Shown here: in pieces, positions 40,323-63,039 of the stretch
Numbering within the stretch: the first letter of the stretch is position 1
Layout: each line of letters opens with the position of its first letter
NCBI RefSeq assembly: GCF_019636135.1
Contig: NZ_JAHBYD010000021.1
Coordinates: 12,166 to 76,165, forward strand
Direction of reading: 5' to 3'
Length of the DNA: 64,000 nucleotides
From: Phenylobacterium sp.
GTDB lineage: Bacteria > Pseudomonadota > Alphaproteobacteria > Caulobacterales > Caulobacteraceae
The notes under the pieces: generated by a model
The model's database searches: none
Told to the model about the DNA's origin: nothing
What the model saw: the letters and a program-made list of their open reading frames with translations, nothing else
Position numbers and translations under genes: made by a program

Positions 40323-41642
40323 TCATTCCGAGCGCCGCGCAGCCTCGACGGTTCGGGCGCGGGCGCGCTGTCGCGTGGCGTAGTAGACGAGGCCGAGCAC
40401 GAGCCAGCCGGCCAGCAGGGCGTAGGGCCGCCAGTCGGCGCCGAAGCCGAGACTGGCGATCGCGACGGCCGCGATCATGCCGAGGACGGACAGCACGCGC
40501 ACCGTCGGGCGGCTGAAGCGCAGGCGGGCCTCGGCGTGCACCTCAGGATGTTTGGTGGCGACGTTGTAGGCCGCCAGACAAGAGCCCAGGTACTTCATCA
40601 TCGTCGGGATGTTCACCGCGAGCAGCAGGAAGAGCAGGCTGGACGGCAGGAAGAGGCCCAGGCAGCAGGCGCCGAACGCGGCGACCGTCGCGACGTGCGG
40701 CGTCCCGAACCGCGGATGGATCGCCGCCAGCGGCGCCGGCAGCACGCCCGCCTTGCCCATCGCGTAGAGGAACCGCGCGAAGACCAGGAAGACCGCGTTC
40801 ATCGACTTCGACAGCGCCAGCACCGCGGCCGTCACGATCAGCGGCGTGGCCCAGCCGCCCAGCGCGGCCTCGGCCGCCGTCAGCAGCGGCGCGTCGCTGG
40901 CCGCCAGCCCGTCGGCGCCCACGAGGCTCATCGCCGTGAACGCGATGGAGACATAGACCACCACGGTCAGCAGCACCGCCAGCGCCAGGCCCAGCGGCAC
41001 GACGCGCTTGGGATCGGCCACCTCCTCGCCCACCTCGGTCGTCGTCTCGATGCCGAGGAAGAGCTGGATCATCAGCGGCAGCGCCGCCAGCGCCGGCGTC
41101 CAGCCCAGCGACAGCGACTGCGGGATCAACTGTGGATTCCAGGAGGGTGCGCCCGCCGCGACGAACACGGCGAACACGGCCAGCAGCATCAGCATCAGGA
41201 TCGTCTGCGCCCGCGCCGCGATGGCGACGCCCAGGAAGTTCAGCGCGAACACCGCGCAGAACATCCCGAACATCACCGGCTTGCCGGGGATGGCGATCAC
41301 CTTGCCCAGGTACATCACCAGCACCTGCCCCAGCACGATCATCACCACCGCGTTCGACAGGATGCGCAGCCAGACGATGGCGAAGGCGATCAGCGGGTGG
41401 GTGAACATCCGCTGCCACTCGAAGCTGGCCGCCGTCTTCGGCATGGCCGAGGCCATGTAGGCGTAGACCATCCCGAACAGGATCATCGGCAGCGCCGCCA
41501 GCACGACGGCCACCAGGATCGCCTCATGGCCGATCTGCGCGGCCGGCCCAAGCACCGAGAAGATCGACGCGCCGATGGCCGTCCCGGCCCCCAGCATCAC
41601 CAGGTCGATGAGGCGGACGCCGCGGCGGAGCTGCTCGGTCAT
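40323..41642 (-). CDS. APC-family amino acid permease
   Basis: GAGTAIGASIF, GIETTTEVGEEVADPKR and HPRFGTP motifs; many TM segments. Confidence 0.88.
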   Translation of the reverse strand: MTEQLRRGVRLIDLVMLGAGTAIGASIFSVLGPAAQIGHEAILVAVVLAALPMILFGMVYAYMASAMPKTAASFEWQRMFTHPLIAFAIVWLRILSNAVVMIVLGQVLVMYLGKVIAIPGKPVMFGMFCAVFALNFLGVAIAARAQTILMLMLLAVFAVFVAAGAPSWNPQLIPQSLSLGWTPALAALPLMIQLFLGIETTTEVGEEVADPKRVVPLGLALAVLLTVVVYVSIAFTAMSLVGADGLAASDAPLLTAAEAALGGWATPLIVTAAVLALSKSMNAVFLVFARFLYAMGKAGVLPAPLAAIHPRFGTPHVATVAAFGACCLGLFLPSSLLFLLLAVNIPTMMKYLGSCLAAYNVATKHPEVHAEARLRFSRPTVRVLSVLGMIAAVAIASLGFGADWRPYALLAGWLVLGLVYYATRQRARARTVEAARRSE

Positions 41643-41690
41643 CGGGTTTCCTCGTGCGGCCGACAGTCTGGCGCTGCCGCATCCCAGGCG

Positions 41691-43376
41691 TCAGAACTTG
41701 CACGCCGAGTCGGGGACGCCTGCCGTGCGCTCCCAGCCCCAGCCCTCCACGGGCGCGCCGCGGGGCAGGTAGGTCACCGTCGTCTGCGCCTCGCCGCGCT
41801 TCAGGGTGAGCGTGATCGACTTCGTGTCGTCCTTGCGCACCTCGTTGACGTCGCTCGTCTGCACGATCACGTCGCCGTTCCGCACGCCCGCCTGGTCGGC
41901 GGCCGAGCCCGCCACGAGATCCTTCACCACCCGGTCGTCGTTCAGCGAACTGCGCGCGAAGCCGAGCTGGAAGGGCCGCACATCCCGTCGCACGACGCTC
42001 AGGCACGGCGCGTAGAGGTCCTTCGGCGGCAGCAGCACCTTGCCGGCGGCCATGTCGTCGTACATCGCCTGGGCCTTCGCCTTCCCTATGTCGGCGCCCA
42101 CCAGCTCCACCCAGACCGGAATGCCGTACGGCTGGTTCGCCACCTGCCGCTTGCGGATCGCCGTGACGATGTCGTCCAGGCTGCGCTTGCCCCCCGTCGC
42201 CGCCCGGATCGCCGCGTCGGTCTGCTGGAGGTACATCCAGCCCCGGCCATAGGGCACCGTCTGTGCGACCGGATCGGTCCAGAAGACCTTGGCCGCCTCC
42301 GGGTTCGTGTAGGCGATGTAGGGGTTCGAGTAGTAGGCGGCGGCGCGCTCGTTGAAGGTCTTCACGACGCGGTCGACCGAGATCGCGCCGGCCCGGTGGC
42401 TCAGCACCGTCGAATAGTACTCGGCCATGCCCTCGGAGTACCAGGCCGTGTCGCCGTGCTCGCCCTGCATCGCGGGCCAGGTGTGCGCCATCTCGTGGGC
42501 CAGCAGGCCCTGCAGGCTGTCCACCGTGGGCTTGGCGTCGAAATTGTAGCCGAACATGAACGAGCGGGCCAAGCCGGTGCCGCCCGTCCCCAGGAACGGG
42601 TTCTGCCGCACGAAGACCCGGTAGCTCCCGCCCTCGTCGTCGAAGAACCTGGCCATGCTGCCGTAGAGCGCGCGCATCTTGTCGCCCAGCTCGTTCGGGT
42701 CGAACGGCGGGTCCGACAGCCAGTAGAAACTGAAGTGCGGATCGCTCGCCTTCGGGTACGACTTCACCGGGCCGGCGTAGTAGTAGCTGAACTGCAGCAG
42801 CTCGGACGGACCCACGGTGTCCACGGCGCCCTCGCCCAGCGACCAGACGCCCCGCGAGCCCGGCGCCGAGGCCGAAAGGTCCCAGGTCAGGTGGATGCTC
42901 CAGGGGCCCGACCTCACGGGCGCGGCCAGGAAACCGTTGCCCGCCCCGGCGAACCCGCCGGCTTCTTCGCGCAGGTCGAACAGCGGGCCGTTGTTGGTGG
43001 CCGCCGTGACCTTCCGCGCCGGCGCGACGTAGGCCACGACCACGTCGCCGACGGTCGCCCGGCCCACGCTCCAGCGGCGATAGACGCCCTGCGGCGTCGG
43101 CGGCTCGTCGGACTGGGTCAGCGGGATCGCGCCCCGGTCGTCCTTCGCGGTCAGCCGGTCGTCGGCCCACGTCGGCCGCGGGATGCCCACGAGGCGTAGC
43201 GGCATGCGCACCAACCCTTCGCCGGCCTTCAGCGCAGGACTGGCCATCGTCATCGTCACGCCCATGCCCTCGCCGGGCTTCGGCGCCAGCACGACGCCCA
43301 GCCTGGCCGGCGCCTGGGCCGCGGCCGGGCCGGCGAACGCGAGGGCCGCCAGCGCCGCGATCAGCAGGCGCCTCAT
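41691..43376 (-). CDS. Exported M61-like zinc metallopeptidase with C-terminal PDZ-like domain
   Basis: Signal peptide, LLAHEMAHTW...WYSEGMAEYY (gluzincin), VPYGRG and GSAADQAGVRNGD motifs. Confidence 0.8.
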   Translation of the reverse strand: MRRLLIAALAALAFAGPAAAQAPARLGVVLAPKPGEGMGVTMTMASPALKAGEGLVRMPLRLVGIPRPTWADDRLTAKDDRGAIPLTQSDEPPTPQGVYRRWSVGRATVGDVVVAYVAPARKVTAATNNGPLFDLREEAGGFAGAGNGFLAAPVRSGPWSIHLTWDLSASAPGSRGVWSLGEGAVDTVGPSELLQFSYYYAGPVKSYPKASDPHFSFYWLSDPPFDPNELGDKMRALYGSMARFFDDEGGSYRVFVRQNPFLGTGGTGLARSFMFGYNFDAKPTVDSLQGLLAHEMAHTWPAMQGEHGDTAWYSEGMAEYYSTVLSHRAGAISVDRVVKTFNERAAAYYSNPYIAYTNPEAAKVFWTDPVAQTVPYGRGWMYLQQTDAAIRAATGGKRSLDDIVTAIRKRQVANQPYGIPVWVELVGADIGKAKAQAMYDDMAAGKVLLPPKDLYAPCLSVVRRDVRPFQLGFARSSLNDDRVVKDLVAGSAADQAGVRNGDVIVQTSDVNEVRKDDTKSITLTLKRGEAQTTVTYLPRGAPVEGWGWERTAGVPDSACKF

Positions 43377-45415
43377 CTATCGGCCGCCGGGCTGGCCGGG
43401 ACCGCGGCGGTCACCGGCGGCGGCGGCGAGAACGGCTTGACGGCCAGGAACGAGTAGATCTCCGCGGGGTAGTAGGCGACGCCGCCCACCATGGTCATGC
43501 GCGTGTTGCGCAGCGCGCTGATGTTCGCCGTCGGATCGCCGTCCACCAGGATGAAGTCGGCCAGCTTGCCGCGCTCGATCGTGCCCAGCTCATGATCGCG
43601 CTTGAAGTAGCGCTCGGCCCCCAGCGTCGAGAGATACAGCGCCCGGCCCGGCGGGATGCCGGCCGCCACGTACACCTCCATCTCGCGCAGGTTCGAGAAG
43701 CCCGTGCCGTCGTCGGTGCCGGGCAGGAGCTGAACGCCGTTGTCGTCCAGCATCTTCAGCACCTCGAGCACCTTCGCGAAGCCCTTCTGATAGTCGGCGT
43801 CGTCCTGCGGCGTCTTGATCGTGACGAAGCTGCGCTTGCGGTAGCGCTGGTAGGCGATCGGCGCGTGATCCAGATACGGCGCATCGCCCGCCTGCACCTG
43901 GCCCGAGCGCGACAGCATCAGGCGCTCCAGGATCATGGCCGTGGTGTCCAGCGCCGTCCCCCGTTCCTTCATCAGCCGCACCGTCGCCTGCACGCGCTCG
44001 GACGTCAGATCCAGGTCCTTGCCCCGCGCCATGCCGGTGAGCCGCAGCGGCGTGCGGGTGTCTTCCTTGGGGTCGAGGATCCAGCCCAGCATAAGCTGGT
44101 TGATGTGGGCGATGTCGTTGTAGCCGTCCCGGATCACCCGGTCGGGCGACGAGAAGGCCGGCACGTGGCCCGTCACGCCCATGCCCAGCCGCCTGGCTTC
44201 GGCGGCCACCGGGGCCACCCAGTCGGGGTTGAAGCTGTTGTAGATCTTGACCTGCCAGTAGCCGTGGTCGGCGTACCAGCGCACGTCCCTCAGCGCGTCC
44301 TCCAGGCTGTCGGCGATGAAGCCGTTCCGGGCCGAGTACGGGCTGCGGCCTTCCAGGAAGCCGTTGCGCACGATCCGCGGCCCCGCCAGCCGGCCGGCGT
44401 TCAGCCCCTCGATGATGCCGAGCAGTTGGGTGTTGTCGTTGCCCTGGTCGCGCGTGGCCGTGACCCCGGCCGCCAGGTTGAACAGGTTCGAGCCCAGCGA
44501 CGTGTGCGAGTGCATGTCGTGCAGCCCGGGCAGCAGCGTGCCGCCCTGCCCATCGATCGTGGTCTCGTCCTTCGGCGTCGGCTGGCCGTCCTCGGGCTGC
44601 ACGCCCGCGATCCGGTCGCCGAACACGATCACCTGCGACGGCCCCGACAGCTTCATCGTCACGGGGTCGAACACCCGCACGTTACGGATGCGGACCGGCC
44701 CCTTGAAGCTGTGCGCGAGCTGGCGGCGCGCGTCCTCCGCCCGGCTCTGCGCGATCTCGCGGCTCACCCGCTGCAGCATCGGCAGTTGGCTCTCGTAGCC
44801 CTCGCGGATCACGCCGCCGGCCTGGAAGAGGTCGCCCCTGGCGTCCAGCAGCACGTAGTCCGGATTGAGGTCGATGCCCGAGAGCTCGTAGACCGTGACC
44901 GGGATCGCGGCCTTGCCCTCGCCGACGGTGAGCTTGCGCACCTCCTTCAGCTTGAGCTGGCCCGACGGCAGCACCGGCAGCGTCTGGCCGGGCGCCTTCA
45001 GCAGCGCCTTCACATAGACGCCCAGCATCCACGGGCTGACGTCGTTGCCGATGTAGAGCACGGGCTTCGCGGCGGAGACCTCGCCCTTGTCGGCCTGGCT
45101 GGCCCACTCGGCCTTGCCGGCGCCCCAGGTGAAGTGCTCGTTCACGGGACTTCCGAACAGGCTTTCGCCCTCGATGGTCCACTTCACCGGCATGCCGGCG
45201 GCGTCGAGGTCGATCTGCTCGCGCGCCTTGGGGCCGCGGCCGTTGTTCACCACCGCGTAGTCGACCGCGACGTGGCGGCCCGTCACCTCGGCGGTCAGGT
45301 GGCCCACCTTCTCGCCGCCCGCCATGGCCACGAACTTCTGCGTCGCGGCCAGCGCGCCACTGCTCACGCTCACGGCCAGGACAGCGCCCAATACGGCGGC
45401 GAACTTCAGCGGCAT
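43373..45415 (-). CDS. Exported amidohydrolase-superfamily protein
   Basis: Signal peptide, LLPGLHDMHSH, GHVP, PGTD and GKLADFILVDGDP motifs. Confidence 0.85.
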   Translation of the reverse strand: MPLKFAAVLGAVLAVSVSSGALAATQKFVAMAGGEKVGHLTAEVTGRHVAVDYAVVNNGRGPKAREQIDLDAAGMPVKWTIEGESLFGSPVNEHFTWGAGKAEWASQADKGEVSAAKPVLYIGNDVSPWMLGVYVKALLKAPGQTLPVLPSGQLKLKEVRKLTVGEGKAAIPVTVYELSGIDLNPDYVLLDARGDLFQAGGVIREGYESQLPMLQRVSREIAQSRAEDARRQLAHSFKGPVRIRNVRVFDPVTMKLSGPSQVIVFGDRIAGVQPEDGQPTPKDETTIDGQGGTLLPGLHDMHSHTSLGSNLFNLAAGVTATRDQGNDNTQLLGIIEGLNAGRLAGPRIVRNGFLEGRSPYSARNGFIADSLEDALRDVRWYADHGYWQVKIYNSFNPDWVAPVAAEARRLGMGVTGHVPAFSSPDRVIRDGYNDIAHINQLMLGWILDPKEDTRTPLRLTGMARGKDLDLTSERVQATVRLMKERGTALDTTAMILERLMLSRSGQVQAGDAPYLDHAPIAYQRYRKRSFVTIKTPQDDADYQKGFAKVLEVLKMLDDNGVQLLPGTDDGTGFSNLREMEVYVAAGIPPGRALYLSTLGAERYFKRDHELGTIERGKLADFILVDGDPTANISALRNTRMTMVGGVAYYPAEIYSFLAVKPFSPPPPVTAAVPASPAADR

Positions 45416-45624
45416 GCAGGCCTCCCCACGACGGCTTAATCGTACCTTCGAGGCCGGGATTTTCTATTCGATCTGCGGCCCGCGCCCCCACCGTGCGACA
45501 AGTTCAATGCGCAGCCGCCAGCGGCGCCACATAGCCTATGCCGCCGCATTTCGCCCGCCGCGGCACAACGCAAGGAAATTCCGCCCGCCCCACGCTAGCC
45601 TTCCTCCGACATCGGGGAGGCCTC

Positions 45625-47112
45625 ATGCCGGAGATCACCAAGCGGGCGCTTCTGGGCGCTTCAGGGCTGCTGGCCGCCGCGCCTGCCGCCGCCCAGGCCG
45701 TCGCGCCCGTCGCCGACGACACGGGGTTCGTCACGAAGCACTCCGGCGTCTTCAACGGCCAGAAGGTCGACTACGTGGCCACCGTCGGCCCGACGACGAT
45801 CCGGAACGCCGCCGGCGAACCCACCTGCCGTTTCGTGACCACCGCCTACGTGAAGCCCGGCGCCGATCCGGCCACGCGCCCCGTGCTCTTCGCGTTCAAC
45901 GGCGGCCCGTCGTCCTCGTCGGCGACGCTGCACATGCTGGCGCTGGGCCCCAGGCGCATCGTCGTGGCCCAGGACCCCAAGGCGCCCGCGCCGAACCCGC
46001 CGCAGCTCGTCGACAACACGCTGACCGTCCTCGACGTCGCCGACATCGTCCTGATCGACCCGGCCGAGACCGGCTTCTCGCGGATCACGGGCGCCGGGAA
46101 GCAACCCTACTTCTACTCGGTCAACGGCGACGCCCAGTCGGTCAGCGATTTCGTCGCCGCCTGGATCAAGGCCAACGGCCGCGAGGCCTCGCCCAAGTAC
46201 GTGCTGGGCGAGAGCTACGGCACCATGCGCGCCGCGGTGATGGCTGGGCAGCTCTCGGCGACCATGCCGCTCGACGGGGTCTTCCTGTTCGGCCAGGCCG
46301 TGAACATGATCGAGACCAGCCAGCGCGCGAAGAACGCGCTGGCCTACGCCACCAACATCACCGCGCTCGCCGCCATCGCCGCCTACCACGGCAAAGCGAA
46401 GGGGCTGCCTGACGATCCGCGCGAGGTGGTCGAGATCGCCTACGCGTGGGGTATGCGCGACTACCTGCAGGCGCTGCTGCGCGGCAACGACCTGCCCGCC
46501 GCCGAACGCCGCCTCGTCGCCGAGCGGCTGGAGGCGCTGACCGGCATCTCCCAGGCCTACTACCTCGAGCACGACCTCACGATCACCAAGATCGCCTACC
46601 TGCGCGAGCTGATGAAGCCCGAGGGCCTGATGCTGGGCATGTACGACGCCCGCTACGTCGGCCCCGCGCCCGCGGCCGGCGAGCGCGCGCAGGATCCCGC
46701 CGGCAAGCTGCAGGCGCCCATCCAGCCGATGATGGTGGAGCACTACGCCAAGACGCTCGGCGTCACCCTGCCCGCCGCCGACTACCGCGGCATCGCCCCC
46801 GGCGCGAACGCCTGGGAGTGGAACGGCACGCTGGGCCCCGGCGGCCCCTTCTTCGACTACGACTACCAGGCGCAGATCTCGAAGGCCTTCAAGGCCAACC
46901 CGAAGTTCTGCCTGATGATCGGCACGGGCTACTACGACCTGACCACCACCATCGGCCCGGCCCGCTACCTGGTCACCCAGAGCGACTACCCGCGCGACCG
47001 CGTGATCCAGCGCCAGTACGTCGGCGGCCACATGGCCTACACGCACCAGCCCAGCCTCAAGGCCTTCACCGACGATATCCGCGCGTGGGTGAAGGGCGGG
47101 AAGCCGGCCTGA
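45625..47112 (+). CDS. S10-family serine carboxypeptidase (Tat-like leader)
   Basis: FNGGPSSSS, IDPAETGFS, GESYG, GYYDL and GGHM motifs. Leader TKRALL. Confidence 0.85.
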   Translation: MPEITKRALLGASGLLAAAPAAAQAVAPVADDTGFVTKHSGVFNGQKVDYVATVGPTTIRNAAGEPTCRFVTTAYVKPGADPATRPVLFAFNGGPSSSSATLHMLALGPRRIVVAQDPKAPAPNPPQLVDNTLTVLDVADIVLIDPAETGFSRITGAGKQPYFYSVNGDAQSVSDFVAAWIKANGREASPKYVLGESYGTMRAAVMAGQLSATMPLDGVFLFGQAVNMIETSQRAKNALAYATNITALAAIAAYHGKAKGLPDDPREVVEIAYAWGMRDYLQALLRGNDLPAAERRLVAERLEALTGISQAYYLEHDLTITKIAYLRELMKPEGLMLGMYDARYVGPAPAAGERAQDPAGKLQAPIQPMMVEHYAKTLGVTLPAADYRGIAPGANAWEWNGTLGPGGPFFDYDYQAQISKAFKANPKFCLMIGTGYYDLTTTIGPARYLVTQSDYPRDRVIQRQYVGGHMAYTHQPSLKAFTDDIRAWVKGGKPA

Positions 47113-48557
47113 TGCCGGCCGCCGTCCTCTTCGCCGCCGCCCTGGCCCTCGCCACGCCCGACGGCCCGGTCACCACCGACCATCGCATCACGGTCGCGGG
47201 CAAGCCGCTGGCCTACAAGGCCGAGGTCGGCCGCATCGCCATCCGCGACGCCGAGACCGGCGAGCCGCGGGGCTTCATGGGCTACACGGCCTACCGCGTG
47301 CCCTCCGCCAAGCCGCGCCCCATCGCCTTCGTCTGGAACGGCGGCCCGGGCGCCGCCTCGACCCTGCTCCACTTCGAGGCCGCCGGCCCGCGGCGGGTCG
47401 ACGGCGGCAAGCTGGTCGACAACGCCGACACCTGGCTCACCGATGCCGACCTCGTCTTCGTCGACCCCATCGGCACGGGCTGGAGCCGCCCGGCGAAGGC
47501 CGAGTATGCCGACGCCTTCTACGGCACCGTGGGCGACGTCGCCTCGGTCACCGAGTTCGTCCGCTCCTGGCGGCTGCTGCACGGCGCCGAGGACGCGCCG
47601 CTCTACCTCATCGGCGAGAGCTGGGGCGCGGGGAGGGCGGCCAACGTCGGCGCGGCGCTCCTGAAGCGGGGCGTCCAGGTCGACGGCCTGGTCCTGATCT
47701 CCGGCGGCGCGGGCATGAAGGACGACTGGACCACCGCCGGCGACGTCGGCGCCCTGCGCCTCGTCAACCTGCCCGCCACCGCGGTCTTCCACGGCAAGCT
47801 CGCCACCAAGGCCGAGGCCGACGCCCTGAAGGCCGCCGACGCCTGGGTCCGCGAGACCTACATCCCGGCGCTCCGCCGCAGGGACGCGCTCACCGACGCC
47901 GAGCGCGAGCAGATCGCGCAGGGCCTGGCGACCCACATCGGCCTCCCCGCCGACGCCATCGACCGCAAGACGCTGGCCGTCACACCGCGCCAGTTCCGCA
48001 CCACGCTGGTCCCCGGCAAGACGCTCGACACCTTCGACATGCGCATCTCAGGGCGCCCTCAAGGTGAGGGGGGTGAAGGCGAACCCCGCGCGCCGCTCCT
48101 GCTGCGCTACTTCGCCCAGGACCTCGGCTACCGCACCGACCTGCCCTACGTCGGCCTGGAGCGCCTGGAGGACGGCTACCTCCCCACCGGCAAGGCCCCG
48201 CAACCCGTCGGCGCCCGCTGGAACTATGCGACCGGCCCCGTCACCAAGGCCGAGTACGACGCCGCCTACGCCGAGGCCGTGCGCACCGGCGCCGGGCCGC
48301 CGCAGCTCGGCCCGCCGCTGCCGGGGACGGTCGAGGCCGTGGCCCTGAACCCGAAGCTGAAGGTGCTGGTCGCCCAGGGCATCTACGACTCGCTGGGCAA
48401 CTGCGCGGGCGCGATGGAGACCGCCAGGAACCTGCCGCCGCCGCTCAAGGCCGCCGTCAGCTTCCGCTGCTACGCCGGCGGCCACATGATGTACCGCGAC
48501 GCCGCCGCCCGCACCTCGCTGGCCGGCCACATCCGCACGCTGATCTCGGGTCAGTAG
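47112..48557 (+). CDS. S10-family serine carboxypeptidase
   Basis: WNGGPGAAS, VDPIGTGWS, GESWG and YAGGHMMY motifs. TGATG-coupled. Confidence 0.85.
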   Translation: MPAAVLFAAALALATPDGPVTTDHRITVAGKPLAYKAEVGRIAIRDAETGEPRGFMGYTAYRVPSAKPRPIAFVWNGGPGAASTLLHFEAAGPRRVDGGKLVDNADTWLTDADLVFVDPIGTGWSRPAKAEYADAFYGTVGDVASVTEFVRSWRLLHGAEDAPLYLIGESWGAGRAANVGAALLKRGVQVDGLVLISGGAGMKDDWTTAGDVGALRLVNLPATAVFHGKLATKAEADALKAADAWVRETYIPALRRRDALTDAEREQIAQGLATHIGLPADAIDRKTLAVTPRQFRTTLVPGKTLDTFDMRISGRPQGEGGEGEPRAPLLLRYFAQDLGYRTDLPYVGLERLEDGYLPTGKAPQPVGARWNYATGPVTKAEYDAAYAEAVRTGAGPPQLGPPLPGTVEAVALNPKLKVLVAQGIYDSLGNCAGAMETARNLPPPLKAAVSFRCYAGGHMMYRDAAARTSLAGHIRTLISGQ

Positions 48558-48559
48558 GC

Positions 48560-51981: not shown

Positions 51982-51982
51982 C

Positions 51983-52936
51983 TCAGAGGGTCCCATGGAG
52001 CCAGGCGGTCGCCGCCAGATCCTGCACGGCGTGGCCCAGCGACTTGTAGACGGTGATCTCGGCGTCCGACGTCCGGCCCGCCGCCGCGCCCGCCAGCACC
52101 TCGCCGATCTCGCAGACGATGCAGTCGTCGCCCACGATCCCCGCCGCCTTCGCCCGCAGGAACTCGCCGCCGTGGGCCAGCACGTGCTCGCGGTGGTCGA
52201 CGATGAACCGCGACTTCGCCATCAGCTCGGCGTCCACCTCGGCCTGCCCCGGCCCGCTGGAGCCCACGACGTTGACGTGCGTCCCGGGCCCGATCCAGGC
52301 GCCCAGCAGGATCGGATCGGCCGCCGCCGTCACCGTGCAGACGATGTCGGCCTCCGCCACAGCGGTCTCGGCTTCAGGGAACCCCCGCGCCGCGATCCCC
52401 GTCGCGTCAGTCACCCGCCGCGCGAAGTCGACGCTCATGCCCGGGTCGCGGCTCCAGACATGGACGGCTTTCAGCCGGCGCACCTGGGCGATCGCCAGCA
52501 CGTGGCCCCACGCCTGCCGCCCGGTCCCGCAGACCGCGAGCACCGAGGCGTCCTTGCGCGCCATCGCATCCGTCGCCACCGCGCTCGACGCGGCGGTTCG
52601 GATCGCCGTCACCTCGCCCGCGTCGGCGATGCAGACCGGCCGCCCTGCCTGCCCGTCGAACAGCACCACGACACCCTCGTGCGCCTTCTTGCCGTCCTCG
52701 GTGAACACGCTGACCAGCTTGGCGCCGAACGCCGCCCGCTCCCCCAGCGACGCCGGCATGATCGCAAATGTCCGTCCCTCGCCCACGCCGATGAAGCTGC
52801 GCAGCAACTGGCGCACGCGCCCGTCCGAGAGCGCGATCATCGCCTCGCGGACCACCGGGATCGCGGCCTCGTACGTCAGCCGCGCGCGCACGTCCTCGGC
52901 GCTGAAGACGGTCAGACCTCCTGCGCGTTCCGGCAT
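51983..52936 (-). CDS. Ornithine cyclodeaminase/mu-crystallin family
   Basis: GAKLVSV, TAIRTAASS, GTGRQA and YKSLGHAVQD motifs. Confidence 0.88.
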   Translation of the reverse strand: MPERAGGLTVFSAEDVRARLTYEAAIPVVREAMIALSDGRVRQLLRSFIGVGEGRTFAIMPASLGERAAFGAKLVSVFTEDGKKAHEGVVVLFDGQAGRPVCIADAGEVTAIRTAASSAVATDAMARKDASVLAVCGTGRQAWGHVLAIAQVRRLKAVHVWSRDPGMSVDFARRVTDATGIAARGFPEAETAVAEADIVCTVTAAADPILLGAWIGPGTHVNVVGSSGPGQAEVDAELMAKSRFIVDHREHVLAHGGEFLRAKAAGIVGDDCIVCEIGEVLAGAAAGRTSDAEITVYKSLGHAVQDLAATAWLHGTL

Positions 52937-53030
52937 GGACACTCCAAAGAAATCGGGCGGCGGCCGTGGGGTGGCCGCCGCCCAAAGCGGCGCGATCCTG
53001 GAGAGAGTAGGGTCGGACCGCGTTGTGAGG

Positions 53031-56003: not shown

Positions 56004-56269
56004 TCTATCCCCCGCAAGTCCGCCCCGACGCCGGTGTCTTACGCCCCGACACGCCCAGGCTCCGCCTTGCCGGAACGGTAGGCGGGAGGGTCCGGTTTTT
56101 CTTTTCGTTCTTCGAACCTTTGCCGGTTCGACACACATTGACTATGCGGCGGCCCGGCAGGCCGCGCATGGGCAATGCATCTCGCCGGAGTTCGTCAAAG
56201 CCCGGTTCGGCGACGCGGCCGTTCCTTGACAGCGGCCGCCTGCGCATCCGCTATGCGCGCATGGCCCGA

Positions 56270-56767
56270 ATGAAAGACACGTCTATGCCGGCGGCGCTGG
56301 ACGCCATCGACATCAGGATCCTCGAACTGATGCAGAAGGACGCCTCGCTCTCGACGGGAGAGCTGGCCGAGCGTGTCGGCCTGTCGCAATCGCCCTGCTG
56401 GCGGCGCATCCAGCGGCTGCGCGAGGAAGGCTACATCAAGGCCGTCGTCGCCGTCGTCGACCCCGAGCGCGTCGGCTTCAAGATGCAGATCTTCGCCCAG
56501 GTGAAGATGACCACGCTCAGCGAGGAAGACCGCGCCAGCTTCTACCGCCAGATCAACGCCATCCCCGAGATCCTCGAGTGCTGGACGGTCTTCGGCGAGA
56601 TGGACGCCATGATGAAGATCCTGGCCCCCGACGTGACCTGGTATCAGGACTTCATCTTCTCGGTGCTGCTGAAGCTGCCGGGCGTCACCGACGTCCGCTC
56701 CATCGTCACCCTCTCCGCCCAGAAGAGCACCCTCGCCGTCCCGCTTACAGCGCGGCAGTTCCGCTGA
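56270..56767 (+). CDS. Lrp/AsnC-family regulator
   Basis: LDAIDIRILELMQKDASLS..ELAERVGLSQSPCWRRIQRL. The start may be 56285. Confidence 0.9.
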   Translation: MKDTSMPAALDAIDIRILELMQKDASLSTGELAERVGLSQSPCWRRIQRLREEGYIKAVVAVVDPERVGFKMQIFAQVKMTTLSEEDRASFYRQINAIPEILECWTVFGEMDAMMKILAPDVTWYQDFIFSVLLKLPGVTDVRSIVTLSAQKSTLAVPLTARQFR

Positions 56768-56773
56768 GAAGGC

Positions 56774-57085: not shown

Positions 57086-58324
57086 ATGAAGTTCACCCGC
57101 AGAGCGCTCGTGACCGCCGCGGCGGCTGCGCCGGCGGCGGCCGCGGCGCAGACGATCGCCGCGCCCGCGCTCCCGGCCAAGGCGTCCTTCGCCAGGATGC
57201 CCTACGTCTACCTGGACTCGGGCTCGACCCATCCGATGCCGCTCGGCGCCCGTGCGGCGCTGGAGGAGTACCTCCGCTACAAGACCCGCGACGGCCGCTG
57301 GACTGGCTACTCCATGGACGCCAAGGAGAAGGCCGTCCTCGAAGGCTTCGGCGCGCTCGTCGGCGCCGCGCCCGACGAACTCACCTTCATCCAGTCCACC
57401 ACCATGGGCGAGAACCTGGTGCTGAAGGCGCTGGGCTTCCCGAAGGCCGGAGGCCGCATCGTCACCGACGCGCTCCACTTCTTCGGCTCGTTCTACACCT
57501 ACGGCGAACTCGCCAAGGCCGGCATGGACGTCGTCATGCTGCCGATGACCGCCGAGGGCCGCATCGACATGAAGGCCCTCGAGGCCGCCGTGAACGACAA
57601 GACGGTGCTGGTCGCCGTCAGCCACATCTCCACCACCAACGGCTTCGAGCACGACCTCAAGACCGTCTGCGACATCGCCCACGCGCACGGCGCGCCGGTC
57701 TACGCCGACATCGTCCACGGCGCCGGCTCCACGCCGCTCGACCTGCGCGCCGCCGGCGTCGATTTCGCCGCCTCGTCTTCCTACAAATGGCTGATGGGCG
57801 ACTTCGGCCTGGCCTTCCTCTACGTGCGCAAGGAGAGCCAGGAGAAGGTCGCTCGCCCGTGGTGGGGTTACCACCAGGTGGGCGGCCGGTTCGTCACCCA
57901 CGTCTTTCCGTACGACCCGCAGGGGCTCACGCCCGCCGACTACGGCTACGCCGCCGGGACCGACGGCAAGTTCGCCATGGGCACCACCTCATGGACCGGC
58001 GTCGTCCAGCTCGAGCACTCCATCGGCTGGATCCGCCAGGTCGGCGTCCCGGCCCTGGTCGAGCACCGAAAACCCATGCTGGCCGCCGTCCAGACGGAAC
58101 TGCGCCGCCGCGGCTACCAGCCGATGACGCCGCACGACAGCCGCAGCCCCCTGGTCGCCTTCGCGCTGAAGGACGCCCGCGCCAAGCTGGGCGACCTCCT
58201 CGACAAGGGCGACGTGCGCATCACCGTCAGCGCCAACCGCTTCCGTGTCTCGGTCGCCGCCTTCAACGACATGAACGACATCGACCGCCTGCTCGAAGTC
58301 CTGCCCAAGGCCCCGCCCGCGTGA
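57086..58324 (+). CDS. Class V PLP-dependent aminotransferase-like protein with Tat-like leader
   Basis: MKFTRRALVTAAAAAPAAAAAQ leader; YLDSGST, ADIVHGAG and SSYKWLMG motifs. Confidence 0.82.
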   Translation: MKFTRRALVTAAAAAPAAAAAQTIAAPALPAKASFARMPYVYLDSGSTHPMPLGARAALEEYLRYKTRDGRWTGYSMDAKEKAVLEGFGALVGAAPDELTFIQSTTMGENLVLKALGFPKAGGRIVTDALHFFGSFYTYGELAKAGMDVVMLPMTAEGRIDMKALEAAVNDKTVLVAVSHISTTNGFEHDLKTVCDIAHAHGAPVYADIVHGAGSTPLDLRAAGVDFAASSSYKWLMGDFGLAFLYVRKESQEKVARPWWGYHQVGGRFVTHVFPYDPQGLTPADYGYAAGTDGKFAMGTTSWTGVVQLEHSIGWIRQVGVPALVEHRKPMLAAVQTELRRRGYQPMTPHDSRSPLVAFALKDARAKLGDLLDKGDVRITVSANRFRVSVAAFNDMNDIDRLLEVLPKAPPA

Positions 58325-59922
58325 AATCCCTCTCTCTGATCGCCGCCCTGCTGGCGAGCGCCGCGCCGGCGTTCGCCCAGGCTCCGCCCGCCCCGGTCAG
58401 CCCCCCGGCCCCGGCGGCGGGCGGCCCGCCCAATTCCGGACCACCGGGCATTCCGATGTCGCGGGCCTATCCTGCGGGACCGGTCGAGCCGCTGCCCGCG
58501 CCGAAACGGTTCGTCACGAAGCATGTGCTGACGGTCGGCAAGCAGCGCATCGCCTACACCGCCATCGCCGGCGAGACCTGGCTCTACAGCCGCGCCGCCG
58601 ACCCCATCGGCTCGATCTTCTCCTACACCTACCTGAAGGACGGCCCGGGCGATCCGAACCGCCCGGTGCTGTTCGTGTTCAACGGCGGGCCGGGCTCCTC
58701 GTCGCTCTGGCTGCACATGGGCGCCGTCGGGCCGCGCCGCGTGGTGCTGGACCGTGAGGTGAACCCGTCCAACACCCCGCCCTTCGGCGTCGCCGACAAC
58801 CCGCACAGCGTGCTCGACGTCGCCGACCTCGTCTTCATCGATCCGGTCGGCACGGGCTACTCCAGGCCCATCGGCAAGGGCTCCACCGCCGACTTCTGGG
58901 GCGTCGACGAGGACGCCGACGCCACCGCCCAGTTCATCGAGCTCTGGCTCACCGAGCACAAGCGCTGGAACGCCCCCAAGTTCGTCATGGGCGAGAGCTA
59001 CGGCTCTGTCCGCGCCGCCATCCTGCCCCGCGCGCTGATGGGCGGGCCGATGTACGTCGGCTACATGCGCGGGATCACCCTCAACGGCGTGATCCTGCTC
59101 GGCACCACGCTCGGCGCCCGCAACGCCGGCGGCGAGGCCGGCGCGGCGGAACTGCGCCAGGCGTTGGCGCTCCCGGCCATGGCCGACACCGCCTGGTACT
59201 TCCAGAAGATCGACCGCAAGGGCCGCAGCCTGGAAGCCTTCCACCAGGAGGTGCTGGCGTTCGCCCGCGGCGACTACGTCGAGGCCCTGAAGAAGGCCAC
59301 GGCCGGCACGCTGACCCCGGCCGACCGCGCCGCCCTGGTCGCCCGCCTCACGGGCTACACCGGTCTCCCGGCCTCCGCCTACGATCGCGCGCTGACCGTC
59401 AACGAAGGCGCCTTCTCCCGCATGTTGCTGGCCGACAAGGGCCTGCAGGTGGGCGCCTACGACAGCCGCTACACCCTGCCCACCGCCGGCAGCGGGAACG
59501 ATCCCGTCGCCGACGACCCGGCCATGGGCCGCTACGTCCCGGGCTTCCTCGCCGCCTTCCACCAGATGGAGGCCGAGAGCCTGAAGGTCGACATGGCCCG
59601 GCCCTACGGCGCCATCGTCTGGCGCGACCTGCTGCCCTCGTGGAACTGGAACCGTGCCGGCGTGCCCGAGGGCCAGTCGTTCGCCACCGACCTCGCGGTC
59701 GCCATGCGCCGCACCGAGAAGATGCGTGTGCTGGTCGCCAGCGGCTACTACGACCTCGTCACCCATTCCGCGACCGCCGAACAGAGCGTCGAGGACGCGA
59801 AGCTGCCGAAGGACCGCCTCACGCTCCGCCGCTACGAAAGCGGCCACATGCTCTACCTCGGCGACACCGCCGCCGCCTTCTCCAACGACGTCCGCGAGTT
59901 GATCCGGGACGCGACGAAGTAG
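58321..59922 (+). CDS. S10-family serine carboxypeptidase
   Basis: FNGGPGSSS, IDPVGTGYS, GESYG, GYYDL and YESGHMLY motifs. GTG start at 58321. Confidence 0.87.
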   Translation: MKSLSLIAALLASAAPAFAQAPPAPVSPPAPAAGGPPNSGPPGIPMSRAYPAGPVEPLPAPKRFVTKHVLTVGKQRIAYTAIAGETWLYSRAADPIGSIFSYTYLKDGPGDPNRPVLFVFNGGPGSSSLWLHMGAVGPRRVVLDREVNPSNTPPFGVADNPHSVLDVADLVFIDPVGTGYSRPIGKGSTADFWGVDEDADATAQFIELWLTEHKRWNAPKFVMGESYGSVRAAILPRALMGGPMYVGYMRGITLNGVILLGTTLGARNAGGEAGAAELRQALALPAMADTAWYFQKIDRKGRSLEAFHQEVLAFARGDYVEALKKATAGTLTPADRAALVARLTGYTGLPASAYDRALTVNEGAFSRMLLADKGLQVGAYDSRYTLPTAGSGNDPVADDPAMGRYVPGFLAAFHQMEAESLKVDMARPYGAIVWRDLLPSWNWNRAGVPEGQSFATDLAVAMRRTEKMRVLVASGYYDLVTHSATAEQSVEDAKLPKDRLTLRRYESGHMLYLGDTAAAFSNDVRELIRDATK

Positions 59923-59956
59923 AGCCGGCTCTGCGCGCCGCAGGCGCCCTCAAGAC

Positions 59957-60036: not shown

Positions 60037-60075
60037 GAATCAAAGCGGCGCTGACGCGCCAACGCACCTTGAGAG

Positions 60076-61602
60076 CTAAGGCTTCTTCGTCACGAACGCC
60101 TTCACCGACTCCGCGAACCGCGCCCTGTTCTCGTCGTGGTCGTAGACGCCGTGGGGGCCGGCGAAATAGGCCGCCGTGAGCTGGCCCGCCGGCACGCCCG
60201 CCTGGTCGAGGGTGTAGCGGCCCGAATAGGCCGGGGTCGTCAGGTCGTAGTAGCCCGCCGCCCAGAAGAGCCGCAGCTTCGGGTTCGCCCGCATCGCCTG
60301 CCCCAGCGCCTCGAACGCACTCGGTCCCGTCGCCCCGCCGGGCGTGCGCGGCCGCTCGTAGTCCCAGGCCGCGTTCACCGCGAAGTTCACGCCGTAATAC
60401 GGCTCGTCGCCCGCCGGGTACTTCAGCGCCTCGATCATGTAGCGACCGACCGCCGGACTCGGGATCGCCCCCAGCGCCGCGGGGCTGGGCGGGGGCGCGG
60501 CCGGCGCGCCCGGCGCCCGCTTCGGCACGACGCCCAGCGCCGGGTCGTCGATCGCCCCGTCCTGCCCCGGCTCCAGCGGCGCGGTCACCGTCACGTCCAG
60601 CAGGCCCGTGCGCAGGGTCCTGTCCTTCAGGATGTTGAACATCCAGTCGTTCTTGGAGAGCCGCAGGTCCTTCTCGACGATCAGGTCGGCCGGCAGCCCG
60701 ATCAGCCCCGACATCCGCTCGGCGATCCTGCGCTTCTTCTCCGCCGGCAGGCTGCCGCCCTCGACCAGCGCCTCCAGGTAATCGGTGCGCGCGAAGTCCA
60801 GCGCCTCGGCGAACACCTGGTCCACGCTGCGTCCCGCCCGGTCGATCTTCTGGTGATACCAGGCCCCCGCCGCCATGGTCGGCAGCGCCACGACGTAGGG
60901 CATCTCGCGCCCGCTCACCTCGCCCGACAGCGCCACCAGCATCACCCCGTCGAAGGGCAGGTCCTGGCTGATCCGCGCGATGTTGGCCGCCCGCGTGGTG
61001 CCGTAGCTCTCGCCCATCAGGAACCGCGGCGAGGTCTCGCGCCTGTTGGCCTTCAGCCACGTCGCGATCACCGTCTTCACCGCCTGCGCGTCGCCCGAGA
61101 CCGAGTAGAACCGCTGGGGGTTCGTCCCCGGGAACGGCCGCGAGAAGCCGGTGCCGACCGGGTCGATGAACACCAGATCCGCCGCGTCGAGAGGGCTCAC
61201 AGTGTTGGGGATCCACCCGCCGCCCGAGCGGTCGCCGGGGGGCGCCGGCCCGCGCCGGTAGGGGCCCAGCGCGCTCATGTGCAGCGGCGACGACGACGCG
61301 CCCGGTCCGCCGTTGAAGAGGAAGATCACCGGCCGGGCGCCCGGATCCTTCACCCCGTTGCGCACGTAGGCGATGGTCGTCGCGGCCGCCGCCGGCCGGC
61401 CCGCCGCGTCGTTCAGGAACACCTCGGCGACGGTCGCGGTGAACTTCACCTTCTCGCCGTTGAACACGCCCTCATGCTTCGTCACCGCCACCCGCGGCGC
61501 GCGCACGGCGGCGGCTTCCGCGGGCGCCTGCGCGGCGGCCCACCCCGGCGACGCCAGCGCCAGGCAGGCGGCGATGGCGGGTGCGATCCAGCGTTCGGTC
61601 AT
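60076..61602 (-). CDS. S10-family serine carboxypeptidase
   Basis: FNGGPGASS, IDPVGTGFS, GESYG, GYYDL and GPHGVY motifs. Confidence 0.85.
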   Translation of the reverse strand: MTERWIAPAIAACLALASPGWAAAQAPAEAAAVRAPRVAVTKHEGVFNGEKVKFTATVAEVFLNDAAGRPAAAATTIAYVRNGVKDPGARPVIFLFNGGPGASSSPLHMSALGPYRRGPAPPGDRSGGGWIPNTVSPLDAADLVFIDPVGTGFSRPFPGTNPQRFYSVSGDAQAVKTVIATWLKANRRETSPRFLMGESYGTTRAANIARISQDLPFDGVMLVALSGEVSGREMPYVVALPTMAAGAWYHQKIDRAGRSVDQVFAEALDFARTDYLEALVEGGSLPAEKKRRIAERMSGLIGLPADLIVEKDLRLSKNDWMFNILKDRTLRTGLLDVTVTAPLEPGQDGAIDDPALGVVPKRAPGAPAAPPPSPAALGAIPSPAVGRYMIEALKYPAGDEPYYGVNFAVNAAWDYERPRTPGGATGPSAFEALGQAMRANPKLRLFWAAGYYDLTTPAYSGRYTLDQAGVPAGQLTAAYFAGPHGVYDHDENRARFAESVKAFVTKKP

Positions 61603-61869
61603 CAGGTCCCCTCCCGACGTTGGCGCAAAGCCTAGCCGCGCGCCTGCGGATTTTCTTTGCAATGTCAGCGCGACAGGCGCCGCGGGCGACCGCGTCGCAG
61701 CCGGCGCCCGACACCCGGCGCATGAGTTATGCGCCGCGCCACCGCCCGGCGAATAGCCGCCCCGCGATCTCCGCAACCCGCAGGTGAATTCGCAAAGAAA
61801 GTCCGCCGTCCTTGCCTAAGCTAGATGGAGCCTGCCGAAGCGCGGGCGGGGGACGCTTAGGGAACTGCC

Positions 61870-63039
61870 TTGAATCCGGTGCAATCGAAAGGCGCGGCGT
61901 CCGCGCAGCCCGGCGCTGCGTCTCCCGACCTGTTCGATGCGCCGTCCTATGCCGACTTCGTCCGCGCCGCGATGCGCATCAAGGCCGCCCGGCCCGAAGT
62001 CGCCATCCTGTTCGAGAGCACCACGCCCGAGCCCACCGGCCAGTTGATCGAGGTGGTGCGCACGGCCTTCTCCGACGAGCTGACGTCGCGCTACGTCAGC
62101 GTCTTCGCGGACGGCAACCGCTACGCCATCGAGGCGGTGGCCCGCCGTTACGGCCTGGCTCCCGAGCAGATCGTCGCCACCACCGGCGCGACGGGCGCGA
62201 TCACCCTCGCCCTGAAAGCGTTCGTGACCCCTGGCGACGAGGTGCTGGTCGAGCGGCCCGGCTTCGATATCCTCGGCAAGCTCGCCGTCGACGCCGGGGC
62301 GCGCGTCGCCGCCTTCACCCGCATCGCACCCGACTACCGCGTCGACCTGGATGCGTTCCGCGCCAGGCTCACGCCGCGCACCCGCGCCGTCCTCATCACC
62401 AATCTGCACAACCCGAGCGGCGCGCGCCTGCCGCCCGAGGACCTCGCCGCCCTGGCCGCCGCCATCGGCCGCGTCGGGGCGGTCCTGATCGTCGACGAGG
62501 TCTACGCCGACTTCGTCACGCCGACGCCGGCGCCCGCCGCCACCCTGGCCGCCAACATCCTGACGGTCTCCAGCCTGACCAAGGTCTTCGGCCTGTTCGC
62601 GCTGAAGTTCGGCTGGATGGCCGGCGACGCGGCCCTGATCGACCGCATCCGCCGCTCGGCCCCCGACGGCGACATGGGCGTCTCCAAGCTCTCGCACGCG
62701 GTCGCCGCCCACGTCCTCGAAGCTCCCGAGGCCTTCGAGGCGCACTGGCAGGACGTATTGGGCCGGAGCCGGCCGGTGATGGAGCGCGAGGCGGCCGCCC
62801 TCGTCGGCGCGGGCCTTCTGGAGGGCGATGCGCCGTCTTTCGGCTGCATGTACTTCCCGCGGGTCCCCGGGTGGCCCGACACCCGCGCCCTGGCCCGCCG
62901 CCTGCTCGCCGACTTCGACGTCCTGGTGGCGCCCGGCGAATTCTTCGGCGCCCCGGGCCGCATCCGCCTCGGCTTCGGCATCGACCCCGACGCCCTGGCC
63001 TCGGGCCTGACCCGCCTGCGCGCCGGCCTCTCCCGCTGA
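61870..63039 (+). CDS. Class I/II PLP-dependent aminotransferase
   Basis: TTGATGA, TNLHNPSG, VDEVY and SSLTKVFG motifs. The start codon is uncertain. Confidence 0.85.
   Translation: MNPVQSKGAASAQPGAASPDLFDAPSYADFVRAAMRIKAARPEVAILFESTTPEPTGQLIEVVRTAFSDELTSRYVSVFADGNRYAIEAVARRYGLAPEQIVATTGATGAITLALKAFVTPGDEVLVERPGFDILGKLAVDAGARVAAFTRIAPDYRVDLDAFRARLTPRTRAVLITNLHNPSGARLPPEDLAALAAAIGRVGAVLIVDEVYADFVTPTPAPAATLAANILTVSSLTKVFGLFALKFGWMAGDAALIDRIRRSAPDGDMGVSKLSHAVAAHVLEAPEAFEAHWQDVLGRSRPVMEREAAALVGAGLLEGDAPSFGCMYFPRVPGWPDTRALARRLLADFDVLVAPGEFFGAPGRIRLGFGIDPDALASGLTRLRAGLSR

Follow-up and report, generated by a model that had tools for sequence, protein, structure and literature searches.

A Phenylobacterium gene cluster combining a TonB-dependent receptor with S10-like and M61-like peptidases is a probable Lrp-controlled system for peptide acquisition and trimming

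A stretch of 64,000 nucleotides (nt) of the Phenylobacterium sp. contig NZ_JAHBYD010000021.1, hereafter the window, in whose positions all coordinates are given, contains between 40323 and 63039 (~23 kb) 14 genes that probably form a self-contained, Lrp-controlled system for the acquisition and trimming of peptides. The genes code for a TonB-dependent receptor (TBDR), four S10-like serine peptidases (S10a to S10d), three M61-like metallopeptidases (M61a to M61c), an amidohydrolase, a class V-fold pyridoxal 5′-phosphate (PLP) enzyme with a twin-arginine translocation (Tat) leader, a class I aminotransferase, an enzyme of the ornithine cyclodeaminase (OCD)/mu-crystallin family, an APC-family amino-acid permease and an Lrp/AsnC-family regulator (Lrp). 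Much of the organic nitrogen in soils and waters is held in proteins and peptides, and the uptake and finishing of peptides above porin size is poorly understood in Gram-negative bacteria other than Bacteroidota. The cluster represents a defined, transferable and regulated candidate system for these tasks in Caulobacterales, other Alphaproteobacteria, Steroidobacteraceae and Acidobacteriota.

The clustering of S10-like and M61-like genes is far beyond chance, since four of the five S10-like genes and all three M61-like genes of the 4.67 Mb genome (62 contigs) are located in these 23 kb. The paralogues are mutually only 26-39% identical, which is too divergent for recent tandem duplicates. Six of 24 genomes of the same genus have a TBDR orthologue (62% identity or more), and in all six cluster genes are placed around it in rearranged order, among them Lrp, the aminotransferase, one or two OCD copies, the APC permease, M61 and S10 paralogues and the amidohydrolase; the 7.5 kb contig of genome G004 holds only M61c, OCD, TBDR and Lrp. 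The loci at four remoter TBDR homologues (36-39% identity) contain no cluster genes. Of the six genomes that have this TBDR orthologue, five also have the PLP enzyme, which was found in none of the other 18. In one genome, G009, the PLP gene is 1.2 Mb away from the remaining cluster, and the co-occurrence is therefore more than physical hitch-hiking.

The survey beyond the genus was carried out by scanning GTDB species genomes with an S10 alignment, which returned 80 loci, annotated by local tblastn with 16 queries (the 14 cluster proteins and two upstream open reading frames, ORFs); locus content elsewhere refers to ~10-20 kb per side and to tblastn matches with at least 50% query coverage. 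More than 60 of these loci hold a lone S10 gene, 36-41% identical to S10c and without cluster neighbours. At least 14 contain two to four S10 paralogues, most of them together with the long amidohydrolase and the Tat PLP enzyme, and the proteobacterial ones usually add Lrp, OCD, aminotransferase, APC and M61 genes and sometimes an orthologous TBDR. The alphaproteobacterial carriers are Caulobacter segnis, Brevundimonas, Hyphomonas, Henriciella, Emcibacter, Phenylobacterium, Azospirillum, Nitrospirillum and one unclassified member; the others are Steroidobacteraceae, three Acidobacteriota (Bryobacterales, Terriglobales and Acidobacteriaceae) and the actinomycete Kibdelosporangium. TBDR orthologues of 51-93% identity anchor the cluster in relatives, in Henriciella and in an alphaproteobacterial metagenome-assembled genome; Lrp (56-99%) and aminotransferase (40-66%) orthologues occur in the proteobacterial cluster loci and APC orthologues (47-82%) in the cluster loci of other taxa, and M61c orthologues adjoin the TBDR and OCD genes in relatives. 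The recurring core thus consists of the S10 paralogues, the amidohydrolase and the PLP enzyme, the last without an orthologue in the actinomycete version. The locus of Kibdelosporangium banguiense (L065, 3010-20900) comprises S10a, S10c, S10d, two M61-like genes (one of them an M61b orthologue of 55% identity), the long amidohydrolase, two YheO-type regulators and an ABC ATPase; a TBDR and an orthologous Tat PLP enzyme are both absent from it.

In a maximum-likelihood tree of 72 S10 sequences (LG+G4, quick search) the paralogues resolve into orthogroups a to d with SH-like approximate likelihood ratio test (SH-aLRT) supports of 99, 100, 98 and 100. Each orthogroup mixes Alphaproteobacteria, Steroidobacteraceae and Acidobacteriota, with Kibdelosporangium also present in a, c and d, and the singleton genes fall outside all four. 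Because the orthogroups span phyla, the sequences indicate that the four S10 paralogues are ancient, distinct and retained together. Their distribution speaks for a single process in which the four have non-redundant roles, and for movement of the set from one phylum to another.

Around this constant enzyme core the receptor and the regulator have been replaced. The acidobacterial loci carry a 1,170-amino-acid (aa) outer-membrane barrel of the CarboxypepD_reg type and a YheO/PAS-HTH regulator instead of Lrp, the loci of Hyphomonas, Nitrospirillum and Steroidobacteraceae a different TBDR of ~740 aa, and the TBDR-less Kibdelosporangium locus the gene for an ABC ATPase. Such non-orthologous replacement of receptor and regulator is good evidence that import and trimming belong together.

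The G+C content is ~70% across the whole window and the ORF lists are crowded as a result; one coherent gene was chosen per stretch by Pfam and NCBIfam scans, and start codons were refined by inspection of the N-termini (S10a ~45622, S10b 47112, S10c 58321, S10d 61602, TBDR 56003 and Lrp ~56285). The genes and the copies of a shared promoter motif are as follows.

40323..41642, minus strand: APC-family amino-acid permease, 439 aa; PF13520 and PF00324; last gene of the amidohydrolase-M61a-APC operon.
41691..43376, minus strand: M61a, exported M61-like gluzincin with C-terminal PDZ domain, 561 aa; PF05299, 28.2 bits.
43373..45415, minus strand: exported amidohydrolase, 680 aa; PF01979; beta-rich N-terminal domain and cog1228-type peptidase barrel.
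45457..45472, plus strand: motif copy 1, GGATTTTCTATTCGAT; divergent promoter region between the amidohydrolase and S10a.
45622..47112, plus strand: S10a, exported S10-like serine peptidase; PF00450, 37 bits; first gene of the S10a-S10b-M61b operon.
47112..48557, plus strand: S10b, S10-like serine peptidase (GESWG) with weak leader; PF00450, 44.6 bits; start overlaps the S10a stop.
48560..50278, plus strand: M61b, exported M61-like gluzincin with PDZ domain, 572 aa; PDZ PF00595, 27.2 bits.
50272..51996, minus strand: M61c, exported M61-like gluzincin, 574 aa; PF05299, 23.8 bits; last gene of the TBDR-OCD-M61c operon.
51983..52942, minus strand: OCD/mu-crystallin enzyme, cytoplasmic, resembling reductases of the ketimines Δ1-pyrroline-2-carboxylate (Pyr2C) and Δ1-piperideine-2-carboxylate (Pip2C); PF02423, E 1.7e-66.
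53031..56003, minus strand: TBDR, 990 aa from the likely start; plug and beta-barrel domains; the ORF reaches 56138.
56094..56109, plus strand: motif copy 2, GGTTTTTCTTTTCGTT; divergent promoter region between TBDR and Lrp.
56285..56767, plus strand: Lrp/AsnC-family regulator, 160 aa; HTH_24, HTH_AsnC and AsnC_trans_reg domains.
57086..58324, plus strand: class V-fold PLP enzyme, Tat-exported by its leader, 412 aa; PF00266.
58321..59922, plus strand: S10c, exported S10-like serine peptidase with Pro/Ala-rich linker; PF00450, 52 bits; start overlaps the PLP gene stop (GTGA).
60076..61602, minus strand: S10d, exported S10-like serine peptidase, monocistronic; PF00450, 41.9 bits.
61648-61663, plus strand, and 61789-61804, minus strand: motif copies 3 and 4, an inverted pair; divergent promoter region between S10d and the class I aminotransferase (PLPI).
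61870..63039, plus strand: class I/II aminotransferase-fold PLP enzyme, 389 aa, cytoplasmic; PF00155.

Overlaps of stop and start codons join S10a to S10b, the PLP gene to S10c, the amidohydrolase to M61a and OCD to M61c, which implies five or six transcription units. Candidate members at its borders were discarded. The acyl-CoA synthetase gene at 37426-39084 and the downstream epimerase and DUF362 genes do not recur in the related cluster loci examined, and neither does the alpha/beta-hydrolase ORF at 39180-40316 (plus strand), which abuts the APC gene and has weak S33/S9 peptidase matches.

A T-rich 16-mer, conspicuous in DNA of such G+C content, is common to the three divergent promoter regions. 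The pattern GGWYTTTCTWTKCRWW, with one mismatch at most, matches four times in the window, each time in a divergent promoter of the locus, with 0.00 matches expected from shuffles, and five times genome-wide; the other ~4.6 Mb thus adds a single match, at C16:40668, which lies inside a transporter-like ORF and was taken as chance. In related genomes all matches with up to two mismatches are intergenic and upstream of cluster genes. The copy in the TBDR promoter is the best conserved, being identical or near-identical 5′ of the TBDR gene in eight loci (L001, L003, L005, L007, L015, L016, L020 and L026), with Caulobacter segnis among the carriers. Genome G020 conserves the site of copy 1 (L008:8056) and the inverted pair between S10d and the aminotransferase gene (L007:11474 and 11615), and the relocated PLP gene of G009 is preceded by a related ATTATCTTGTCGTT site ~75 nt upstream. 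A cis motif specific to the locus argues for co-regulation, and it points to a single regulon, which is probably under Lrp. Lrp would be the obvious candidate to bind the motif: no other regulator is encoded in the locus, and one of the sites lies between its gene and the divergent TBDR gene. A search of sequencing runs for this organism returned no RNA runs, only metagenomic DNA runs in which its share was low.

Export leaders were read by eye, with no predictor run. Clear Sec-type leaders are found in the TBDR and in seven of the eight hydrolases (M61a, M61b, M61c, the amidohydrolase, S10a, S10c and S10d), that of S10b being weak. The leader of the class V PLP enzyme contains the twin-arginine motif FTRRALV (MKFTRRALVTAAAAA) followed by a hydrophobic stretch, as in Tat substrates, and an (S/T)RR leader is conserved in its alphaproteobacterial, gammaproteobacterial and acidobacterial orthologues.

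The PF00450 scores of S10a to S10d all exceed the gathering cut-off of 21.9 bits. In alignments of eight and of 62 sequences, the latter being the four paralogues and 58 relatives, the Ser of GES(Y/W)G is invariant, as are the GxYD Asp and the His near the C-terminus (S226, D478 and H509 in S10c); one relative carries GQSYG at the nucleophile position. The NGGPG motif is likewise kept, and HMMER aligns N121-G122-G123 and E225 with NGGPG and GESYAG of human cathepsin A. The ten best Protein Data Bank (PDB) matches of an AlphaFold model of S10c (predicted local distance difference test, pLDDT, 89; predicted template-modelling score, pTM, 0.88) are all cathepsin A or carboxypeptidase Y (CPY), with E values from 2e-14 to 9e-12, and the next fold class, other alpha/beta hydrolases, begins at 7e-9. 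The eukaryotic S10 enzymes (CPY, cathepsin A and Kex1; MEROPS S10, PF00450) are thus the best matches in sequence and fold, and share with the locus enzymes the Ser-Asp-His order, the GESYxG nucleophile elbow and NGGPG, which in CPY provides the oxyanion hole and contacts to the C-terminal carboxylate. The locus enzymes differ from them in being bacterial and envelope-exported, in forming four ancient paralogues in one locus, in the cap region (TM-scores of 0.5-0.65), and in sequence, with ~15% identity to the solved structures. S10c has a long Pro/Ala-rich linker, and its residues 1-50 are disordered in the model. Its closest homologues, 73-81% identical, are from Phenylobacterium, and in the S10 tree one genome of the same genus is almost identical to sequences of Phenylobacterium metagenome-assembled genomes. 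The S10 database names are automatic annotation; some NCBI records of S10c homologues from Phenylobacterium and Caulobacter are named 'septum formation initiator', which looks like a propagated annotation error. Literature searches found no published assay of any bacterial S10 member of these orthogroups.

M61a and M61c exceed the PF05299 cut-off of 22 bits, and Pfam PDZ matches occur in M61a and M61b. The HExxH motif and the downstream Glu of WxxEG are invariant among 11 sequences comprising the three paralogues and relatives (HEMAH...WYSEG in M61a, HEMFH...WFGEG in M61b and HEMIH...WYGEG in M61c). The M61 glycyl aminopeptidase is the enzyme of Sphingomonas capsulata. Such aminopeptidases have the same metal-binding motif and downstream Glu, the C-terminal PDZ domain and a similar length, and the alignment of M61a with PDB 7xyo, 'Aminopeptidase M61' (E 3e-9), extends through the PDZ region. 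The locus proteins are set apart as three divergent paralogues, very distant from the known enzyme as judged by that E value and by Pfam scores of 24-28 bits.

In the amidohydrolase the metal ligands are invariant (H302 and H304 of HxH, K390, H417, H437 and D568). The best folds for its AlphaFold2 model (pLDDT 88) are the Xaa-Pro dipeptidase 2qs8, the Lys/Arg carboxypeptidase Cc2672 of Caulobacter crescentus (3mtw) and ochratoxin amidohydrolases, with 3feq and 8ihq also matched. With these cog1228 peptidases (Cc2672, Sgx9260-type prolidases and the ochratoxin A amidohydrolase ADH3; E from 1e-23 to 1e-19) it shares the full binuclear-metal ligand set and target-based TM-scores (TMt) of 0.7-0.78; it differs in its ~20% identity and in an extra conserved, beta-rich N-terminal domain of ~200 aa (~residues 24-205). 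The fold-search matches span only the ~400-aa barrel (query-based TM-score, TMq, ~0.45) and leave this domain uncovered. Against NF051886, the Caulobacter Xaa-Pro dipeptidase, the protein scores 86 bits, below the equivalog cut-off of 500, and no S10, M61 or amidohydrolase enzyme of the locus has an equivalog-level match; their membership of these families is distant. As a marker of the cluster across the order the long amidohydrolase proved too broad, being found in 101 of 301 genomes; only ~19 of the matches have at least 47% identity, and a large paralogue class lies at 39-44%. Several of these orthologues or paralogues contain one or two in-frame stops (e.g. two TAG in G226:C43:18225-20225), possibly as pseudogenes or through sequencing errors.

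The class V PLP enzyme resembles desulfurases of the SufS type (E 1e-26), a function that was ruled out because the loop bearing the catalytic Cys is deleted, both in the window protein and in 13 of 13 orthologues, in an alignment with the genome's own SufS-like protein. The Lys motif (SYKWLMGD) and the C-terminal Arg, which in class V enzymes such as SufS and IscS binds the substrate alpha-carboxylate, are kept in the protein and its orthologues. Its substrate thus probably offers both a free alpha-amino and a free alpha-carboxyl group; a search of the ESM Atlas with the enzyme returned generic names only. PvdN has the class V fold as well. PvdN and PtaA are cofactor-loaded PLP enzymes that Tat exports to the periplasm, where they act on a peptide-borne residue, the gamma-linked Glu, whose alpha-amino and alpha-carboxyl groups are free (PMC6206403). 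The locus enzyme resembles these pyoverdine-tailoring proteins in being, by its leader and fold as read from the sequence, a PLP enzyme exported by Tat to the periplasm, a likeness established only at the level of fold class; it differs in having no siderophore genes nearby, its context being catabolic and not biosynthetic.

The OCD enzyme matches PF02423 over its full length (residues 13-313). It scores 224.6 bits against NF004793 (Pyr2C/Pip2C reductase), below the equivalog cut-off of 322. Its closest structure is the Pyr2C reductase 6t3e (E 1.8e-49), and the mammalian ketimine reductase is also near. Ornithine cyclodeaminase activity is disfavoured, since the reductases outscore by far the ornithine and lysine cyclodeaminases (1e-24 or weaker). 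Several relatives have a second OCD copy inside the cluster. In the Phenylobacterium genome studied here a second paralogue, 60% identical to the locus copy, lies on contig C61 (L102:6722-7663); it adjoins genes for an S33-like alpha/beta-hydrolase, an HNH endonuclease and a TetR regulator, with no cluster genes, and was not counted as part of the cluster. The aminotransferase is a generic class I enzyme with VioD and GntC as best NCBIfam matches, both below cut-off, and 3op7, Rv0858c and glutamine aminotransferase as PDB matches. The order of aminotransferase and then ketimine reductase is also that of the pipecolate and Pyr2C routes. Lrp matches PF13404 (63 bits) and PF01037 (60 bits) and scores 104 against the Escherichia coli Lrp equivalog, below the cut-off of 233.

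All 14 genes listed in a first-pass annotation of the window were recovered in the ORF list and by the Pfam and NCBIfam scans, and much of its description of the enzymes stands: the four S10 proteins do have an intact catalytic motif and C-terminal His, the three M61-like ones HExxH with the third-ligand Glu, and the amidohydrolase its Sec-type leader, PF01979 domain and ligands. Its view that nearly all the hydrolases carry export leaders agrees with our reading by eye, with the reservation made for S10b. For the OCD/mu-crystallin enzyme the family was right, and the protein looks like a ketimine reductase and not like a cyclodeaminase.

We propose a model in which we infer cargo, compartment, enzyme specificities, Lrp binding and the PLP and OCD reactions from this gene content. 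The TBDR would carry oligopeptides, or peptide-like oligomers above porin size, through the outer membrane. In the periplasm five C-terminal trimmers, namely the four S10-like enzymes with distinct specificities and the amidohydrolase as a carboxypeptidase or dipeptidase, would yield free amino acids, while the three M61-like metallopeptidases, presumed aminopeptidases, would trim from the opposite end. The Tat-exported PLP enzyme would act on a residue with free alpha-amino and alpha-carboxyl groups, either an amino acid set free by trimming or a terminal residue attached through its side chain. The products would be imported into the cell by the APC permease, and the aminotransferase and the ketimine-reductase-like OCD enzyme would turn at least one of them into a usable amino acid. 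Lrp, sensing amino acids, would govern the five or six transcription units via the shared 16-nt operator-like motif.

The polysaccharide utilisation loci (PULs) of Bacteroidota, RagAB and the TBDR-centred 'CUT' loci, which occur in Xanthomonas and Caulobacter, likewise couple an outer-membrane receptor genetically with hydrolases that are exported, a transporter in the inner membrane and a regulator of their own. According to a preprint, RagAB of Porphyromonas gingivalis is a TonB-dependent transporter able to import oligopeptides (bioRxiv 10.1101/755678). The cluster described here differs from PULs and RagAB in having no SusD/RagB-like lipoprotein, the Pfam scan having found no SusD or RagB domain among its 14 genes. 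It also differs from PULs in that its hydrolases are, by family, exopeptidases and not glycosidases, in that its regulator is Lrp (YheO-type in other phyla) and not a hybrid two-component or extracytoplasmic function (ECF)/anti-sigma system, and in its occurrence in Alphaproteobacteria, Gammaproteobacteria and Acidobacteriota. The first-pass annotation had described a PUL-like system for peptide utilisation and had made this depend on co-conservation of the genes. They are co-conserved, as the distribution of the PLP enzyme among TBDR-orthologue genomes and the recurrence of the core across phyla demonstrate, and this, together with the cis motif, supports its reading in part. The logic is that of a TonB-centred utilisation locus; the cluster is not a PUL of Bacteroidota type, since it has no SusD-like partner. 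The annotation also knew of no characterised locus of such architecture, and our literature searches found neither one nor a study of bacterial S10 enzymes.

Several observations weigh against the proposed acquisition and trimming of peptides. At the level of the enzymes, the PF00450 match of S10a to S10d spans only profile positions ~35-148 of 420, that is, the N-terminal third, and the TM-scores of the S10c fold are moderate (0.47-0.66), for which reasons their predicted carboxypeptidase activity is deduced from conserved motifs, Asn-Gly-Gly and Glu-Ser. M61b, which Pfam does not match to M61, is tied to the family only by its 32-35% identity to M61a and M61c. In a system that scavenges peptides in general, there would be no obvious need for a PLP enzyme in the periplasm. 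The four window sites matched by the motif pattern are also those used to define it, and it is tested independently by the remainder of the genome and by the orthologous loci. At the level of the locus, the acidobacterial and actinomycete versions have no OCD, aminotransferase, APC or Lrp gene, which makes the cytoplasmic module a proteobacterial add-on and not part of the core. Moreover, Kibdelosporangium is single-membraned and has no TBDR, so outer-membrane import is not essential to the enzyme set.

The same machinery might instead be specialised for non-canonical peptides containing D-amino acids, iso-linked residues (gamma-Glu or beta-Asp) or hydroxylated residues, such as peptidoglycan stem peptides, non-ribosomal peptides or refractory peptide debris, the main alternative, which we regard as possible and rather doubtful. 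The Tat PLP enzyme would then edit or remove a residue that blocks the exopeptidases, and the aminotransferase and ketimine reductase would turn an unusual amino acid (e.g. a D- or diamino acid, via a cyclic ketimine) into a proteinogenic one. Co-conservation of a periplasmic PLP enzyme with the S10 set in Alphaproteobacteria, Steroidobacteraceae and Acidobacteriota, the retention by this enzyme of Lys and C-terminal Arg without the desulfurase Cys, and the precedent of PvdN and PtaA, whose periplasmic substrate is a gamma-linked Glu within a peptide (PMC6206403), are in agreement with such a specialisation. So are the proximity of the OCD enzyme to Pyr2C and mammalian ketimine reductases, the four anciently fixed S10 specificities, which suggest a defined and complex substrate, and the best families of the aminotransferase, VioD and GntC, which act on modified arginines, with the reservation that these matches are below cut-off. 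The YheO-type family, to which the regulator of the acidobacterial and actinomycete versions belongs, includes DauR, the regulator of D-arginine catabolism. On the other hand, the locus contains no racemase, D-aminopeptidase, gamma-glutamyltransferase or D-amino-acid dehydrogenase, all PLP and OCD family matches are below equivalog cut-offs, S10 and M61 are known as families of L-peptide exopeptidases, and neither the OCD gene nor the aminotransferase gene occurs in the versions of Acidobacteriota and the actinomycete. The stronger proposition that the cluster is a machine dedicated to peptides that ordinary exopeptidases cannot finish (D-, iso-linked or modified; cell-wall or non-ribosomal debris) appears unlikely. 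If it were true, the Tat PLP enzyme would clear a blocking terminal residue in the periplasm as the catabolic counterpart of PvdN and PtaA, each ancient S10 paralogue would have a fixed, non-redundant specificity, and the aminotransferase and ketimine reductase would recycle an unusual amino acid via a cyclic imine.

We regard as quite unlikely an extracellular digestion of proteins by secreted or surface-exposed exopeptidases, with a TBDR that imports an unrelated compound or only a specific product and a co-location reflecting a shared nutritional regulon instead of import coupled to trimming. The enzyme set of the monoderm Kibdelosporangium without a TBDR would fit this arrangement, Sec leaders cannot tell periplasmic from secreted proteins, and the linker of S10c, disordered in the model, could tether that enzyme. 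However, three TBDR types have been recruited independently beside the enzyme set, the best-conserved motif copy sits in the TBDR promoter, exopeptidases alone are poor on intact proteins and the locus has no endopeptidase, and a Tat-exported, cofactor-bound PLP enzyme fits the periplasm (PMC6206403). A chance or purely historical build-up of paralogues by tandem duplication, with no common function, is highly improbable. The adjacency of the paralogues, the rearranged gene order between genomes and the distant PLP gene of G009 could be explained in that way; divergent paralogues whose orthogroups are older than the carrier phyla are not recent duplicates, the co-occurrence outlasts rearrangement and cross-phylum transfer, and the promoters have a locus-specific motif in common. 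Lrp-controlled acquisition and trimming of peptides hence remains the reading that we favour.

With regard to this favoured reading, the cluster offers, in predicted roles, four bacterial S10 orthogroups, an amidohydrolase carboxypeptidase with an unmatched N-terminal domain and a periplasmic PLP enzyme. The predicted operator motif and the culturable relatives (Caulobacter segnis, Hyphomonas beringensis and Phenylobacterium) make regulation, transport and enzymology directly testable.

Two repeated structures are located in the intergenic regions of the locus. A palindromic element of ~210 nt (56774-56983) lies between Lrp and the PLP gene, with outer arms of 54 nt at 87% complementarity and nested arms of 42 nt. 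It is a dispersed repeat with many copies of 70-94% identity on other contigs of the genome, and for this reason looks like a miniature inverted-repeat transposable element (MITE) or a repetitive extragenic palindrome (REP). Between the convergent S10c and S10d genes (59956-60037) there is a perfect 20-nt inverted repeat of reiterated CACAGAA units, which is probably a bidirectional terminator.

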